A stretch of 64,000 nt of DNA from Candidatus Spongiisociaceae bacterium. Lineage in GTDB: Bacteria > Actinomycetota > Acidimicrobiia > Spongiisociales > Spongiisociaceae. The stretch lies in the NCBI GenBank assembly GCA_965262915.1, contig OZ253564.1:1280001-1344000 (forward strand), in the 5' to 3' direction. The position numbers and the translations under genes are program-made. This document shows positions 8,220 to 15,106 of the stretch, in pieces; the first letter of the stretch is position 1; each line of letters starts with the position of its first letter. The notes beneath the pieces were generated by a model, which was not told the origin of the DNA, did not search any database, and worked only from the letters and a program-made list of their open reading frames with translations.

Positions 8220-9652
8220 GGCTCATCGGATTTCAGTGGGGAGTGACCGATGGGAGTAGGTCCCAGTTGGGTTTCCCCGCGTAGAGAAGGGCGCGGATTC
8301 GGTAGTTCGCGAAGTTGCGGAACCCGAACGCTGCTCGTTTGATCCGTTTGATGAGGTTGTTGAGGGCTTCGGTGGGTCCGTTGGTTACCTTCGAGATGTG
8401 CCAGTTGGTGATCTGGGGGGTCCAGCGGGCGATGGTACGACCCAGCTTGTTGATCTCGGGTGGGCAGGATTCGTGTTGGAGGTCGTCTGCGAGCTGGAGG
8501 GTGTATCGGAGAGCAAGGACCGGACTCTCGATCCCGTAGATGCCTCGTACCGTCTCTTTCGCGTGCCAGGCTGTGCGCACTTCCCCGTAGGGGTCACCAG
8601 CATCGAGGAGACCACGCAGCCGTATTTGACCCCGGTCGCTGATCCTCTCATGCGCAGCGGTTAGGAGCCGCCGTATCCGATACAGCGGGTCATCCTTGCG
8701 GCCTCGATGCCCGAGGGTTTCGTTTTGGACTCTTCGTCGTACCTCGTCGAGACGCTGGTTGGCGAGGCGGATGACGTGGAACGGGTCCGCTACCTGCAGC
8801 GCGTGCGGCAGCACCCTGTCATACGCCTTCCGATACGAACCGGACATGTCCAACACCGCCCAGCGGATAGCCTCACACCATTCGGTGGGTTGTGACCGGA
8901 ACCAGGCTGCGGCGCTTTCTGCTGTTCTACCAGGGACTATGTCGATCAGCTGGTGGCCGCCAACGTCGACGACAGAGGTGCACCAGACTTTGGTACGCCA
9001 ACGGCCCCGACGCCAGAACAACGTCTCGTCCACTCCCACAGCTTCGACGGTCCCGACCCGATCGGTGTCTGCTTCCAGCAGCGCTTCGCCCCAGCGGCCA
9101 ACCTCTTTGTTCACCGTATGCCAATCACAACCAAGTTCTGCGGCGACCTCGTCGACCGAACGGCCCCGCCCACCCACCTGGATGGTCACCCACCGGGCCG
9201 CTCGGGATGTCAACAACGCCCGTTGGGGACCAATCTTGGGGTCTTGTTCGATGAACGATCTGAGCGCACAGTCGGGGTTCGGACATGTCCAGCGCCGTTT
9301 CCGCCACCGCAGCCGCACAGGCCGGCCGAACGCCGGTAAATCCACCAACACAACCGTCCGATAGCCCTTCGACCACACCGACCCGCCACAGGACTCACAC
9401 AACGGCCGGGGCTTGCGGGACCGGATCACCACCTCCAACGGTGCCTCCTCGCCCGGGTCGTTGATCCCTACCAGATCAACCTCACCTAGGCCTACCAACT
9501 TCTCGCACATGCGCGTAGGATCAGCTTCCACAGGGGTCCTCCTGCCTCGGATGTCATTACCAACACCCGATTATGGAGGACCCCTCCTCACTTCTGGTGG
9601 ATTCCAACTCCCCCTGGCAGATCCCCTACTCCCCACTCATTTCCGAAGAGCC
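8220..9652 (-). mobile_element. ISL3-family insertion sequence, 1433 bp, 8-bp TSD
   Basis: IRs GGCTCATCGGATTTCAGTGGGGAGT / GGCTCTTCGGAAATGAGTGGGGAGT (21/25); CCGAAACT duplicated at 8212-8219 and 9653-9660. Confidence 0.95.
8233..9531 (-). CDS. ISL3 transposase
   Basis: Zinc finger CESC...CPNPDC, GVDET, VLDMS, ADPFHV, TNGPTEALNNLIKRIKRAAFGFRNF. Confidence 0.95.
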   Translation of the reverse strand: MEADPTRMCEKLVGLGEVDLVGINDPGEEAPLEVVIRSRKPRPLCESCGGSVWSKGYRTVVLVDLPAFGRPVRLRWRKRRWTCPNPDCALRSFIEQDPKIGPQRALLTSRAARWVTIQVGGRGRSVDEVAAELGCDWHTVNKEVGRWGEALLEADTDRVGTVEAVGVDETLFWRRGRWRTKVWCTSVVDVGGHQLIDIVPGRTAESAAAWFRSQPTEWCEAIRWAVLDMSGSYRKAYDRVLPHALQVADPFHVIRLANQRLDEVRRRVQNETLGHRGRKDDPLYRIRRLLTAAHERISDRGQIRLRGLLDAGDPYGEVRTAWHAKETVRGIYGIESPVLALRYTLQLADDLQHESCPPEINKLGRTIARWTPQITNWHISKVTNGPTEALNNLIKRIKRAAFGFRNFANYRIRALLYAGKPNWDLLPSVTPH

Positions 9653-10890
9653 CCGAAACTGAGGGCATCGATCGTCGCAGACCACAATGTGGGGCGACCA
9701 TCGGATCGGGAGTCTTGGTCGCTAATTGCCATACAGAAAATCCGTCGTCGTGCGGGCACGGATGCCTCCGGTGCGGACACGCCTGCTGCCGTTACGGCTC
9801 CGTAAGTCTCCGGTGGATTGGGAGTCGTATCAGGCAGAATCTTCACGGACTCGAGACGGTGAACCAACTGCACATCCAACCCCGAGGTGAGGACATCGGT
9901 CACGTCACCGAACAGGCCCAGACCTGCCATGGCCGTTCCGTGTCCGTTGCGGTCATGTCCGTCGGGGCCGACTACATCGTGGATGTCTCCAGCGTGGAGC
10001 GAGTCTCGGAACAGGGAGTGCTGGTAGATCCCGGTATCAAGCAGGCACACGGCGGGTGCATGCTCTGGAGCTGGGACGATGCGCCTTAGTGTTTTCTTTA
10101 CCCATTCCTGCTGGGTCTCGCGAGGAAGTTCGGCAGGCGAAGCCAGACTCGCGTATCGGATCTCAGCGATCGGAAGCCGAGACGCTAAAGAGGCACCCAG
10201 AGATGCCAAGTCTGTCCGGACGGCCGTAACGGTGCGTCCTGGGCGTGGGAACTCGACCGCTTGTGCAGCCAGTTCCCACTCGGCGCTTGCTGCGACCTGG
10301 GTGAGAGTGTCGAGTTCTTGTCCGGTACGGCGGAGCCAGATCTCCCACCAGCCCATGCTCTCGCTGGGATACGGACGGTGATCCGTCCACAACTGCTCCA
10401 GCGTCGCCCGCTGCAAGGACGCGATGTTGGCCACGAGCTTCTCGTGGCGTGGCGTGCCCTTGCGCGTTTCCTCATTGGCGTAGCGGTCAAGCCGTGAGAA
10501 GAACTGCCCGACTTGAGAGTCAGGAACGGAGACTGTCGCGATCTCGGCTGATAGAGGATCACCGGCAGGCAGTCTCACTGAGAGCAACTCGATACCCGAC
10601 CCTCGGAGATCGAGACTCTCCAAGGCGAGTGTGAACCCGTTCGGCCAACCCACCACAGCGAGAATGACACCGTCCGCTTTCAGTTCTTCGGACCACTGCT
10701 CTCGGGCATCCTGTGCCTCATCGATCGCCCCCTCGAGGCCTTCACGCAGTGCGCTGGCGTGTGCCTGCCGGTCGGGGATCTTAGGTAGCTTTGGTTGACC
10801 GTCCCCGCCACCGCGCCGCTGGTATCGGTCGGTGATCGGCTCGGCTGGAACCAGGATATGTGGAAGCTCGTAGACCATTCGCCCGCCCGA

Positions 10891-11868
10891 TCAGTTGTCG
10901 TTGGGACGCCGCTCTCGGAGCGCCTCTTCCAAGACAGCCGTTGTGATCCTCTTCTCTTGTGCTAACACGGTCTGTTTGGCTGCAGCCTCGGCAGCGCGAA
11001 CAAGGTCCGCTTGGCTTAAGCGAGCCGTCTGACCAGCAAGCACATCCCAATCAACGTCCATCGTGTCGAGCATCGCAAGCCGACTCCTCATCACCGCCAC
11101 CGCTGCACCAGGATCAGGCAGCGAATACTCGATAACCTGGTCAAATCTGCGATAAAGCGCTTGGTCCAACAACCTAGGATGATTCGTCGCCGCGACAACC
11201 ACGCTCACCGGTGACGCGTGTTCCAGGAATTGAAGGAAAGAGTTGAGCACCCGCCGAGCTTCGCCCACGTCGTTAGGCGCACCCCGTTCGGCTCCGAGAG
11301 CGTCAAACTCGTCGAACAGATAAACGGCTCTGGTCGACGCTACCGCATCGAACACGAGGCGCAGCTGAGCTGCCGTCTCCCCCATGTACTTGCTTATCAC
11401 TACATCGAGCTGGATGGTAAAGAGCGGTCGCTTCAAGCTATGGGCGAGCGCAGCCGCCGACATACTCTTGCCCGTACCCGGCGGGCCCAGAAGCAACACG
11501 CGATGAATAGGGTCAAGACCGTGGGTCGCCAGCAGGTCCGAGCGACGCTGCTCGGTGAGAATACGCTCAAGCTTCCTAAGCAACTGAGGTTCCAACGTCA
11601 TCATGTCCAAGGAGACCTCTGGGTAACTCACCGTCACCAGACCCGCGAGCTCCCCTCGCGGCTGCACCATCGGCACGGGACGCAAAGCCGCGGCCGCACG
11701 TTCTCCCTTCGCAGCATCGATCAAATCCCGAAGATCCTGGGCAAACCGATTCTTCCCTTCTCTGGCGGCTCTCGCAGCAACCTGAAGCGCGACGGAGTAG
11801 AAGCCGTCGTCGTCGCCATCCATGTGGCGACGAATTAATGCCTTGAAGTGATCAGCGGTGAGTGCCAT
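10891..11868 (-). CDS. ietA: AAA ATPase, IetA-like
   Basis: GPPGTGKS, LFDEFD, AATNH, RRFD; directly upstream of the S8 peptidase in the canonical ietAS order. Confidence 0.85.
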   Translation of the reverse strand: MALTADHFKALIRRHMDGDDDGFYSVALQVAARAAREGKNRFAQDLRDLIDAAKGERAAAALRPVPMVQPRGELAGLVTVSYPEVSLDMMTLEPQLLRKLERILTEQRRSDLLATHGLDPIHRVLLLGPPGTGKSMSAAALAHSLKRPLFTIQLDVVISKYMGETAAQLRLVFDAVASTRAVYLFDEFDALGAERGAPNDVGEARRVLNSFLQFLEHASPVSVVVAATNHPRLLDQALYRRFDQVIEYSLPDPGAAVAVMRSRLAMLDTMDVDWDVLAGQTARLSQADLVRAAEAAAKQTVLAQEKRITTAVLEEALRERRPNDN

Positions 11869-12089
11869 GAACTCCGTTCCCTCCCGGTGTCACCCCCGGC
11901 CCCGCCCCAGTCATCGCCAAGTCACTTCGTTCATGCCGGCGAGGACGTGGGTTGCACTCGGTTCTCACCATCCTACGCCGCCGACTCTCAGGTACGGCGC
12001 ATGTGCAGCTTCTTAGGTGTCTCCCACATCGGCTACTAAGCAAACGGCAGTTGAGACGATCGTGGAAGAACACACTCATAATGGAATGG

Positions 12090-12325
12090 CTCTTTCCTTT
12101 GGGGGCCACCTGCGAAGATGGGGTGGCCCCTTGGAGCGGGGGGCGGGTCTGACTCAAAAGAACACTGGCGTGCGCTTGCGTTGCCTTTGCGTTGATCTGT
12201 CGGCCTGTCCCCCGGTCCAGGGAAGAGCGGGGTTTCGGCTCCGAGCGGATGTGACCTAATAGGAGCTTTAGCTTCCCAGCACCGTGAGTGTACTGTCCAC
12301 CGCTTTTTGCCGGAACCCCGCAACA
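12090..12325 (+). ncRNA. IS110 bridge RNA (5' hairpin, target-binding loop, donor-binding loop); ends approximate
   Basis: Hairpin 12101-12130; stem 12133-12153/12199-12218 encloses AAGAACA (12158-64) and CGTTGAT (12190-96); stem ~12227-12255/12295-12321 encloses ATAGGAGC (12259-66) and TGAGTGT (12285-91). Confidence 0.8.
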
Positions 12326-12354
12326 AGAGTAGCGCCCTCGAGGAGGTGGTGGTC

Positions 12355-13587
12355 GTGTCGGGGAATCGGGTTGATGTGTTCGGTGGGGTTGATACCCATC
12401 GTGACACCCATGTAGCGGCGGTGGTGGATACTGCTGGTCGCCTGTTGGGGTCAGAGTCGTTCGCAGCGGAGGGAGCTGGGTATCAGCGGTTGGTCGCCTG
12501 GCTGGGATCGCAGGGACATCTGGTCCGGGTCGGGGTAGAAGGAACCGGTAGTTACGGCGCCGGGCTGGCCCGCTATCTGACCGAGGCCGACATCGAGGTG
12601 GTGGAGGTGAACCGGCCGAACCGCCAGCTACGCCGCCAGAAGGGCGGCAAGACCGACAGCGTCGACGCCGAGGCAGCAGCTCGGTCGGCCGCCTCGGGCC
12701 AAGCAACCGCAGTTCCCAAGTCCGGTGACGGTCCGGTCGAGTGCCTGCGGATGCTGAGGACGGCCCGCCGCTCCGCGGTCAAAGCCCGCACCCAGGCCGC
12801 CAACCAGATCCACTCTCTGGTGGTTACCGGCCCTGAGCAGGTCAAACAACAGCTAAAGGGCATGAATCTCAAAGCCCAGGTCCGAGTTTGCGCCCGGTTC
12901 CGACCCGGCACAGACCACACCACCACCGCCTACGCGAAGCGTGCCCTGCGGCATCTGGCCCGCCGATACCAAACCCTCGACACAGAGATCGGCGAACTCG
13001 ACACCGAGATCAGAGGCCTCTGCGCGAAGGCGAACCCGGCGCTGCTGGCGGCAGAAGGTGTCGGTCCTGACACAGCCGCCGCTTTGTTGGTCGCAGTCGG
13101 CGACAACCCCGGGCGTATGAAATCGGAACGGTCCTTTGCGGCGCTGTGCGGCACCAGCCCCGTCCAGGCATCATCGGGACAGACCATGCGGCATCGTCTC
13201 AACCGGGGCGGCGACCGGCAAGCAAACTGTGCGCTGTGGCGCATCGCTACCACCCGGATGCGCCACGACGCCCGCACCAAAGACTACGTAACCCGACGCC
13301 AGACCGAAGGAAAGAACCGAAAAGAGATCATCCGCTGCCTCAAGAGGCACATCGCCCGAGAAATATACCGACTCATCACTAACCCGCCACCAACCCCGAA
13401 CTGCGCGAAGCTGCGCACCCTACGCCAACAAGGCGGCATCACCATCACCCAAGCCGCCCACGCTCTCCGAACCCACCCTGCCCGCATCTCAGAAATCGAA
13501 CGCGGCCGAGACCACAACCACCAGCTCGCTACCCGATACCAGAACTGGCTCCGAACCCACCAACCCGCCCCACCATCATCGATTTGA
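12355..13587 (+). CDS. IS110 DEDD recombinase with an extra C-terminal XRE-type HTH
   Basis: GVDTH, VGVEGTGSYG, KTDSVDA, SPVQASSG, RLNRGGDRQAN; tail LRTLRQQGGITITQAAHALRTHPARISEIERG; AGGAGG at 12341-46 favours the GTG at 12355. Confidence 0.9.
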   Translation: MSGNRVDVFGGVDTHRDTHVAAVVDTAGRLLGSESFAAEGAGYQRLVAWLGSQGHLVRVGVEGTGSYGAGLARYLTEADIEVVEVNRPNRQLRRQKGGKTDSVDAEAAARSAASGQATAVPKSGDGPVECLRMLRTARRSAVKARTQAANQIHSLVVTGPEQVKQQLKGMNLKAQVRVCARFRPGTDHTTTAYAKRALRHLARRYQTLDTEIGELDTEIRGLCAKANPALLAAEGVGPDTAAALLVAVGDNPGRMKSERSFAALCGTSPVQASSGQTMRHRLNRGGDRQANCALWRIATTRMRHDARTKDYVTRRQTEGKNRKEIIRCLKRHIAREIYRLITNPPPTPNCAKLRTLRQQGGITITQAAHALRTHPARISEIERGRDHNHQLATRYQNWLRTHQPAPPSSI

Positions 13588-13601
13588 CAATCATAGGAGC
13601 A
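13584..13601 (+). promoter_or_regulatory. -35 box (TTGACA) at the IS110 right end; forms a promoter only on the excised circle
   Basis: Circle junction reads TTGACA-N16-CATAAT (-10 box at 12077-12082), pointing into the bridge RNA. Confidence 0.75.
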
Positions 13602-15106
13602 TCAACGAGCGAGCAGCATCATCGGACGACCCGATACCCGTAGGTCCAATCCAGCGGTGGGCACTTGAACTACTACCCAACCCGGCAACTCTGCTCCCCG
13701 AAGGCGCCGAGATGGCCTACGAAGCGCTTTCGGTGAACCGAAGCCGCACAGTCCGATCATCCCGCGGCACCATCCGCCGCGACCTGGCAAACGACCTGAG
13801 GCTGCGCGACGGCGGCAGCCGCGCGGATCGCGCAGCCTCCGCATTCCTTCGGTCTACGCGAAGTAGAGCCCGCCGAACCCTTAGCCTGAATCCACCGATG
13901 GGGAGCGCGCAGCGGACATGGAGATATGGTGGAAATGCCTCCTGATCTGCGGCGATAGCTATTGGTAAGGATGGTTCGGTCCTGGGAAGAGGAGCAACTT
14001 CCTGTGAGTGGTGGATCCCGGAGATCGCCCTGGTCAGGAGTGGTTTTCGGAACATGAATCGGTGGATTCAGGCTTAGAGGGTGCGCGGATAGGCGGACGC
14101 GACCGCCCCTATCCGTAACTCCTACGCGGTTCCCACGCGGAGAGACTGCTGGTCATAGCCTCAGGGTCGTCAACCGTCGCAGCCTCCACTGTTTCCCCAG
14201 GTGAGCACCTATCCGCGCACCCTCTTAATCGAGATGACCGTAGACGACGTAGGAGTCGTCTACTGGTGAGGGATCCTCCCCGAACGACAAACCAGTCCAT
14301 ACCAGTGATCACACACCCAGACCAACGACGTAGGACAGCGGCCTCCGGTCACCTCCAAAGCACTTGGCGCGCCATCATCGTCAACAACTCACCGGAACCA
14401 CCGACCTGACGTGCCCATTGTGGACGGTGGAGGACGATGTGTGGATCATCCACGAAACTAGTGACGAAACCTGTAACCGCCGGGATTGGGGTGCCGTCGG
14501 GCGGAGGATCGGCGGGAGGAGCATGGGTTGCTGGATCGGGGCCGCTAAGTTGAAGCGGCTCTACCTCGTTGCTGGCAGGCGCTCACAGACTGAACATTGG
14601 CTAGCGTTGGTCGCCGTGGCGGTCTCTCTGTCGATGGACAAGATCACGAAGTACTAACGACAGTGATACCGTGTTGAGCAGTCGTGTAGTAAAATGCCTG
14701 TTTAGCAGGGTAAACAGTCGCAACTCCGAGTTACAGCCGGTAACTGGCGGAAACACCCCACAACCCGACCCCCGAACGCTACACAACATAACCCAAAAGT
14801 TTACAAGCCGATTTGCGGGCCGAGAACGCGGTCCCACACCGGGAGGCCCACCGACCCCCCAGATTTTCAGGTCCGGATGCCCCGCTTACGGAATGCTAGG
14901 GGTCGCCCCGGTGCGGAACAGATGCACGAGGGTTACGGCAAACCTCGCCCCACGCGGTGTCCATCGCGACTGGTTCGTCAAGGTCGGACACCGAGCCAAT
15001 AGCGCTGACCATCACCGGCCGCAGGGACAGCCCAGACATCATCGGGGGTTGGGCCGGTCGGCCTGTTTCAGCTGGTGCAGCCTTGGCCGTCTCCGTCACG
15101 GTCCAA

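Follow-up and report, generated by a model that had tools for sequence, protein, structure and literature searches.

An IS110-group insertion sequence of an Acidimicrobiia bacterium with a predicted bridge RNA and no CT core common to target and donor

Bridge RNAs have been predicted in most IS110 elements, with cores that vary and with longer right target guides (RTGs) in some (Durrant et al., PMC11208160). IS621 of E. coli (Durrant 2024, PMC11208160; Hiraizumi 2024, PMC11208158) combines a recombinase of 326–328 amino acids (aa), with a DEDD domain and a Tnp domain carrying a serine, with a long left end and a short right end, and inserts without a scar. Its 177-nt RNA has a 5′ stem-loop (PMC11208158), a target-binding loop with a left target guide (LTG) of 9 nt and a donor-binding loop, and is expressed from a promoter split over the junction of the right and left ends (RE–LE); target and donor share the core CT. 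Cleavage of the top strands falls directly behind the core; afterwards the RTG and the right donor guide (RDG) base-pair with the non-cognate strand as it enters, and the ‘handshake’ guides at positions 6–7 favour the post-exchange state (PMC11208158, PMC13626964). According to a 2026 preprint (10.64898/2026.08.31.748434), IS621 is excised mainly as a single strand. Here we describe an insertion sequence of the IS110 group, 1,530 bp long, at positions 12074–13603 of a 64,000-nucleotide window (the whole stretch of DNA that was analysed) of an Acidimicrobiia bacterium genome, itself a single 5.05-Mb contig. We put the probability at about 0.85 that this is an IS110-group element with a bridge RNA, in the register 12074–13603 and with its crossover at the ninth target base, a C (C9).

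The element would work like IS621 and shows the testable features that define the family; it is a new member of the IS110 group without a shared CT core. In common with IS621 it has the DEDD and Tnp/serine domains, the long left and short right ends, a predicted RNA with a 5′ stem-loop and target- and donor-binding loops, an LTG of 9 nt, scarless insertion, a predicted promoter split over the RE–LE junction, and a handshake layout in which RTG and RDG extend into matches to the non-cognate DNA. The two differ in that protein similarity is low (phmmer E 1.5e-10, over two short stretches), the recombinase has 410 aa and an extra C-terminal helix-turn-helix (HTH), the RNA has a predicted length of ~230 nt, the invariant crossover base is C and not T, and natural pairing of the RTG with the target is longer (6–7 nt after C9). 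At position 8, where IS621 has the C of a CT shared by both partners, the target has A (C, G or T in relatives) and the donor T. ISCro4/IS622 (bioRxiv 10.1101/2025.05.14.653916; PDB 9T56) is of the same family and has the same 14-nt recognition and handshake bases upstream of the core; in contrast to the present element, its CT (or GT) cores had to match between target and donor in that study. The IS1111 group (PMC11208160) likewise has a DEDD recombinase of this family and RNA-guided site choice, and its elements often insert into mobile elements, but they carry the RNA (seekRNA or bridge RNA) in a long right end and have subterminal inverted repeats of 7–17 bp. Our element does not belong to that group: its right end has 16 nt and the covariance-model matches described below lie upstream of the gene.

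The ends of the element were seen in an element-free metagenome contig (run X1; 883 nt, depth 4), which covers 11950–12072 and 13603–13799 and skips exactly 1530 bases, two letters at the joint fitting either side. The empty site reads GGAAGAACAC|AACGAG, that is, GGAAGAACACAACGAG or GGAAGAACACAACG in target form. Insertion was scarless, with no target duplication beyond the core, and the CAT at the right junction is element DNA. Raw reads of the Hi-C run X22 also exit the element exactly after position 13603. The parts of the junctions are as follows.

12074–13603, + strand: inserted element, 1,530 bp, ACTCATAAT...ATAGGAGCATC, as set by the X1 contig, three copies with the same ends and the X22 reads
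12065–12073, + strand: left half of the target, positions 1–9, GAAGAACAC, with AC at positions 8–9, as set by the empty-site contig and an 8/9 match to the LTG, the register being set by relatives
13593–13603, + strand: left donor end ATAGGAGCA (13593–601) followed by donor positions 8–9, TC (13602–03)
13604–13609, + strand: right half of the target, AACGAG, where the guide expects AACGCA (4/6 match)

Other copies in the same genome have the same ends. Besides the window copy (c01) there are two near-identical copies, c02 (713847–715373, minus strand) and c03 (1730356–1731882), at 100, 99.9 and 99.2% identity for the three; their ends are identical, as the initial annotation of this DNA had expected of other copies. 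The right end GGAGCATC is common to 21/22 own-genome copies (those with an intact right end), and in the alignment of 22 copies every lineage with an intact right end terminates at ...[A/G]TAGGAGCATC, regardless of the DNA that follows. In nearly all relatives, too, the right end is ATC, GTC or TTC. Copies c02 and c03 each interrupt a gene for another IS110-family transposase, the two host genes being 96% identical; since the flanks differ more than the inserts, these were probably separate insertion events. No empty sites for c02 and c03 were found in the genome itself, and their register was tested instead on an 80%-similar uninterrupted paralogue and by a frame test. Joining the flanks of c02 as ...AAGAACA+CAACG... 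yields an open frame collinear with the paralogue (...RKRAQGKEHNAAVIYVARRRPNIILAMLK... versus ...RKRAEGKRHNAAVVCVARRRPNIILAMLK...), and c03 behaves likewise.

These data bear directly on the parse of the initial annotation, which had placed a CA core at 12071–72 and 13600–01, with the target GGAAGAA-CA-TCAACG and the donor ATAGGAG-CA-CACTCA. Indeed, CA is present at both places, and the four guide strings match the junctions as written: AAGAACA at 12158–64, CGTTGAT at 12190–96, ATAGGAGC at 12259–66 and TGAGTGT at 12285–91 are all where they had been reported. However, the X1 contig joins 12072 to 13603 without T 13602, and the empty site that had been named, GGAAGAACATCAACG, is one base too long, including this donor base, an outcome that the annotation itself had listed as a refutation; reconstructed target and donor were one base out of register. 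The same join shifts, and thereby breaks, the host frame at c02 and c03, and it fails at the empty sites of the families c04 and c06, while its 13-mer AAGAACATCAACG has no exact match in the 5.05-Mb genome. In addition, the ATC of the right junction and the GAT of the RTG do not vary among relatives, even where targets differ. Doubt about assigning ATC to the target had arisen because right ends are constant and GATCT invariably terminates the 3′ side of the first loop; the tandem CACA at the left junction had led to the CA core. A circle junction ...GGAGCACACTCA... / ...ATAGGAGCACACTCA... would follow from this parse, which we consider very improbable. The crossover would instead fall at C 12073 and C 13603, with the top-strand exchange after C 12073.

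Register could also be read in relatives. Empty sites of the sister family c04 (..GAAATTCCCCACCC and ..GAAAATCCCCACCC) overlap its junctions in TC only, at the same place. Four Streptomyces relatives (L052, L053, L055 and L057; 51% protein identity) interrupt a TnpB-like frame, and there target and donor share a single C. The X1 contig, the frame test at c02, the c04 sites and the Streptomyces loci are four independent tests of the register, and their outcomes concur.

Four of the X22 Hi-C reads pass after 13603 into GAACTCATCC..., a flank that matches the RTG at only 1/6 positions. They may come from another, off-target insertion site in the sample or from a ligation chimera.

The left non-coding end of the element (12074–12354) has 281 nt, the right end (13588–13603) 16 nt, and the RNA lies in the left end. 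The fold of 12079–12345 has −129.2 kcal/mol (z = −4.8), and 0/200 shuffles were as good. As the initial annotation had described, it consists of a 5′ hairpin and two stem-enclosed internal loops, the IS621-type arrangement of a 5′ stem-loop, a target-binding loop and a donor-binding loop.

12101–12131, + strand: 5′ stem-loop with an 11-bp stem and a 9-nt loop, from the minimum-free-energy fold
12138–12213, + strand: target-binding loop module, with the outer stem 12138–53 and 12199–213, the 5′ loop TCAAAAGAACACT (12154–66), the inner hairpin 12167–85 and the 3′ loop 12186–98
12157–12165, + strand: LTG, AAAGAACAC, target positions 1–9 in top-strand sense
12188–12196, + strand: RTG, TGCGTTG (12188–94), the reverse complement of C+AACGCA, followed by AT (12195–96)
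12228–12321, + strand: donor-binding loop module, with the outer stem 12228–40 and 12309–21, the inner stem GCGG.TG.GAC (12245–55) and GTC.CA.CCGC (12295–303), and a run of T at 12304–08
12259–12269, + strand: left donor guide (LDG), ATAGGAGC (12259–66), then T, T, T; matches the right end at 13593–13600
12285–12291, + strand: RDG, TGAGTGT, the reverse complement of A-C-ACTCA; matches 12072–12078

Folds, co-variation in the stems and a loop layout kept in 66/80 loci of relatives define the target-binding module, and the outer stem of the donor-binding module shows compensatory changes between families. A consensus by RNAalifold of ten own-genome copies gave an implausible donor loop and was replaced by a hand-set structure that was checked pair by pair. 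The Rfam scan of 11500–14500 (E up to 1) gave no match, Rfam 15 either having no matching bridge-RNA model or not reaching this clade. A subterminal inverted repeat like the 3-nt ATA/TAT of IS621 was not evident by eye.

In the corrected register the first loop reads TC-AAAAGAACAC-T ... TTTGCGTTGATCT. The LTG matches the left flank at 9/9 positions at c02 and c03 and at 8/9 at the window copy. On the right, the reverse complement of the RTG is AGAT-C-AACGCA-AA, of which C+AACGCA is matched 7/7 at c02 and c03 and C+AACG at the window copy, where 4/6 right target positions fit. The optimum of the guides is thus the exact site of c02 and c03, AAAGAACAC|AACGCA, and not the preferred target AAAAGAACATCAACG that had been proposed; written as AAAGAACACAACGCA, it has no intact site at ≤1 mismatch in the 5.05-Mb genome. 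That the window copy had inserted despite distal mismatches, as the initial annotation put it, is roughly right. Its 7-nt right-hand matches need dividing: in ATCAACG, CAACG is target DNA and the AT (12195–96) matches donor positions 7–8, and in ACACTCA, CACTCA is donor and the first A is a target base. The RDG complement accordingly holds a target-type position 8 (A), C9 and right-donor positions 10–14, the complement of TGAGTG being the CACTCA of the left end. Compared with the right end ATAGGAGC-A-T-C, the LDG ATAGGAGC-T-T-T mismatches at position 7 and matches at position 8; a G.U wobble could form at position 9.

We then asked how guides and flanks behave in relatives, a check across homologous elements that the initial annotation had proposed. 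A scan of species-representative genomes gave 80 loci; the closest relatives (65–80% protein identity) are from Acidimicrobiia metagenome-assembled genomes (MAGs), several of them named sponge symbionts, and the distant ones (45–57%) from Actinomycetes. A covariance model built from ten own-genome copies matches 66/80 of these loci, directly upstream of the gene. Changes on both sides were found for 18/26 stem pairs, and 93.6% of cells are paired, compared with ≤47.3% for slid partners, in an alignment that was fitted to the model. Relatives keep one loop layout. The 5′ loop starts with [T/C]C and closes with a T, between which stand 9–10 variable bases, the last of them a C. Reverse-complemented, the 3′ loop gives AGATC (nearly constant), variable bases and AA, with the 5–6 nt after AGATC tracking the right flank.

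With the help of the donor guides, both junctions could be placed at 48 loci; these hold 35 distinct guide pairs. Guides matched their own flanks at a mean of 10.29/15 positions and swapped pairs at 4.43; scores of 12 or more were reached by 18/35 own pairs and by 2/1190 swapped ones. The same was seen within the genome, where in sister families the LTG changes along with the left flank and target loops differ while donor ends stay the same; in the families c04 and c05 an A-to-G change gives GTAGGAG in the guide as well as in the end. By these comparisons the guides match the element's own junctions and co-vary with the flanks in relatives, and the recombinase/RNA pair may be programmable.

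The left end also appears in RNA. In a sponge metatranscriptome (X19), a 177-nt contig spans 12124–12300, and with it the two loops, at depth 86.8 with 2 differences, without strand or ends; over the gene there was one 173-nt piece at depth 3.1, and the other gene bins had depth 0. The end of the contig at 12300 is an assembly break, because a DNA contig also ends at 12300. A contig that lacks strand and ends would suit a leader or attenuator of the transposase mRNA as well, the junction matches then being incidental. We regard this as the least probable of the alternatives, given co-variation of guides and flanks over 35 guide pairs, far above the swapped controls, an architecture and loop layout kept in 66/80 loci, and homology of the family to IS621, whose RNA function was shown (PMC11208160).

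Having set the register, we compared what target and donor have in common. C9 is all they share; at position 8 the target has A, as do LTG and RDG, and the donor T, as do LDG and RTG. No identical core dinucleotide is thus read by all four guides, the target having AC and the donor end TC; the initial annotation was right that the core is not CT. The missing shared core means that the element lacks a feature of the IS621 clade which does not define the family, and its family membership is unaffected. In the 21 well-matched guide pairs, position 8 is T at the right junction as well as in the RTG in 21/21, the LTG equals the left-junction base in 20/21, and the RDG does so in 16/21 (A/A 11, C/C 4, G/G 1). 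Judged from these sequences, position 8 behaves like a handshake base, not like part of the core. In every junction the bases as far as position 9 are those of the target on the left side and those of the donor on the right side, a layout that fits products defined by the top strand.

The same target and donor might alternatively belong to a sub-lineage with a true 2-nt CA core at 12073–74 and 13603–04, cut after the A. The two letters of the X1 joint that fit either side allow this, and GAACA-CA-ACG and GCAT-CA-CTCA share CA exactly. In relatives with the same scaffold, however, C9 is followed in the target by a base that varies, the first of the right half, and in the donor by A; only C is shared in the Streptomyces loci (L052–57) and at the ISL3-end sites described below, and TC in c04. 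In the fixed loop register, moreover, LTG and RTG overlap only on C9. The A after C9 is shared here because this target happens to start with AACG, and we consider a 2-nt CA core unlikely.

With the crossover at C9, a mechanism can be proposed by homology with IS621. The element would be excised as a circle with the junction ATAGGAGCA-TC-ACTCATAAT, read as ...ATAGGAGCATC|ACTCATAATGG... and containing ...GGAGCATCACTCATAAT.... This junction would assemble the promoter TTGACA-17-CATAAT, which would drive a bridge RNA of ~230 nt. The target loop would pair with AAAGAACAC (bottom strand, positions 1–9) and C+AACGCA (top strand, positions 9–15), and the donor loop with ATAGGAGC..T(C) and C+ACTCA. 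The top strands would be cut after C9 and then exchanged. Because the RTG carries donor A7-T8 and the RDG target A8, the two guides of the window element together would pair 2 bases of positions 7–9 before exchange and 5 afterwards, which would extend the handshake logic of IS621 to the first core position.

The halves of the predicted promoter lie at opposite ends of the integrated element.

12077–12082, + strand: CATAAT, −10 half of the split promoter
13584–13589, + strand: TTGACA, −35 half of the split promoter, overlapping the stop codon TGA (13585–87)

Joining the right and left ends by script gave TTGACA-17 nt-CATAAT in silico, and no sigma-70-like site was found in the integrated stretch 11900–13750. 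In 21/25 distinct relatives rebuilt in the same way the split promoter is present as TTGACN, a spacer of 17 or 18 nt (17 nt in 16) and NANNNT; three of the four others have TTGCAA instead.

Several points weigh against this account. The empty site comes from one depth-4 contig of the best DNA holder, possibly the genome's own sample, and 8 flank differences in this contig indicate a different strain or allele. Taken alone, the window copy could equally be read with a 2-nt CA crossover at 12073–74 and 13603–04. No circle-junction read or contig was found in four runs (three searched as contigs only, and ~2% of the Hi-C run read), and the donor sequence was for that reason inferred from both junctions. 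For the RNA there is a single contig, giving neither strand nor ends nor proof of function. In the relatives, 17/35 own guide pairs score below 12, the automatic left-end finder being visibly off at some loci (for example L039 and L041), and RDG position 8 differs from the left junction in 5/21 pairs. Two further points come from sister elements: the abundant families at ISL3 ends (c06–c21) have a register anomaly of 1 nt, and the copy c15 (G000:C1:3663636–3665083, minus strand) has a site, ..AAAGAACCCC|..|ACCGCC.., that fits its own guides badly.

The families in question, at 77–81% DNA identity to the window element (L006, G000:C1:1759289–1760734, minus strand, and 13 further copies), all lie 8–9 bp from the end of an ISL3-family insertion sequence, identified by the Pfam domain DDE_Tnp_ISL3. 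The left junction of these families holds one C more than the LTG match ACTGAAATC, and unoccupied ISL3 ends read CACTGAAATCCGATGAGCC in 12 copies and GAAGAGCC in 3, versus CACTGAAATCGATGAGCC in 1. A search for the ISL3 left inverted repeat, aimed at separating two ISL3-end variants, found no pattern match upstream of the 14 occupied ISL3 copies. Copy c15 carries an ISL3-directed target loop, and its site matches the LTG of the window element at 8/9 positions with a 1-nt shift. It is possible that c15 was guided in trans by a co-resident bridge RNA, or that it is a half-match insertion. Its target could not be fixed via paralogous repeats, which differ by a 3-nt repeat unit at the site.

That an IS110 element has decodable guides is expected and not surprising, as bridge RNAs are known and thousands of orthologues have been computationally predicted. 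What we propose, with the odds about even, is that in this clade of Actinomycetota/Acidimicrobiia target and donor need share only C9 and position 8 is set independently, insertion proceeding across a built-in mismatch that gains its pairing only once the top strands have been exchanged. Several lineages live together in the genome, their donor ends nearly identical and their target loops not, and these may also guide each other's elements, perhaps as in c15. If one shared base is enough, the rule of a matching dinucleotide core for site choice in bridge editing is not general, and the clade offers a scaffold with a one-base constraint. One-base or unequal cores may already be shown in Extended Data Fig. 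10c of PMC11208160, which gives the cores of six diverse elements. The genome also holds a natural reprogramming series, with at least five guide lineages whose target loops differ and whose donor ends are the same, and target, donor and core are now fixed by a real empty site.

The recombinase gene lies between the two non-coding ends.

12355–13587, + strand: recombinase gene, 410 aa, starting with GTG at 12355 and preceded by the ribosome-binding site GAGGAGG (12340–46)

Its product has an N-terminal RuvC-like DEDD domain and a Tnp domain with a catalytic serine; Pfam matches are PF01548 DEDD_Tnp_IS110 (4.4e-27), PF02371 Transposase_20 (5.4e-20), HTH_31 (5e-6) and HTH_3 (1.7e-5). In a phmmer alignment to IS621 (PDB 8WT6), GxDxx, the E in VEGTGSY, TDSVDA and SSG are kept. 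The acidic residues D, E, D and D align with those of GIDT, IEATGTY and TDTVDA of IS621, and the S of ASSGQ with the S of ESGSS; these acidic residues and the serine were named catalytic by Hiraizumi et al. (PMC11208158). The extra C-terminal HTH is of the XRE type (window 13408–13512, residues ~352–386 of 410). It is kept in Acidimicrobiia relatives and a few Actinomycetes (Kocuria, Cryobacterium), whereas in most other relatives the protein match stops short of it; by hand count, HTH_31 is matched in 66/120 listed homologues of 71–100% identity. In the papers searched, neither actinobacterial bridge RNAs nor IS110 recombinases with an HTH tail came up, and a term search of 10.1101/2024.06.21.599552 gave no mention of an HTH.

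The closest relatives of the element are in sponge-associated MAGs, and it is abundant in its own genome. A DNA search of that genome gave 46 matches and blastn 45 high-scoring segment pairs; about 25 full or nearly full copies are among the ~45 matches, and about twenty of the copies, beyond the three near-identical ones, have 72–83% identity.

Fragments of the element were also seen. A 73-nt piece (G000:C1:3624779–3624851, minus strand) has 93% identity to the first 72 nt of the left end in the window and adjoins a c04-type target (..TCGATCATTGAATTTC|ACTCATAATGG); it is a remnant of a close relative with a different target loop. Four left-end-only fragments of ~170–190 nt have an intact target loop (G000:C1:293120–293303, minus; 341505–341690, plus; 287118–287301, plus; 3969952–3970118, minus). 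Three of them break off within the left donor guide (..GTGACCTGATAG) and continue with ACAC, and one of these three then enters the right-end-like ATAGAAGCATC, which adjoins an ISL3 end. They may be deletion derivatives resembling miniature inverted-repeat transposable elements, or donor-guide DNA may have been used as a pseudo-end. In the Acidimicrobiia MAG chromosome of the relative L031, positions 126–491 hold a tandem repeat of 7.2 copies (99% matches), whose 51-nt unit extends from the first base of the element through the LTG. It looks as if the element's own left end had repeatedly used the DNA encoding the LTG as a target half-site, although the repeat could also be an assembly artefact.

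Two genes adjoining the element on the minus strand (window 9637–11868) match the Iet anti-phage system: one encodes an AAA ATPase that matches IetA (3.2e-66), the other an S8 peptidase with a weak match to IetS (3.1e-10), which has only 413 aa compared with profiles of 795–855 positions. The element is ~205 bp upstream of the start of ietA, and it possibly lies in the ietA promoter region.

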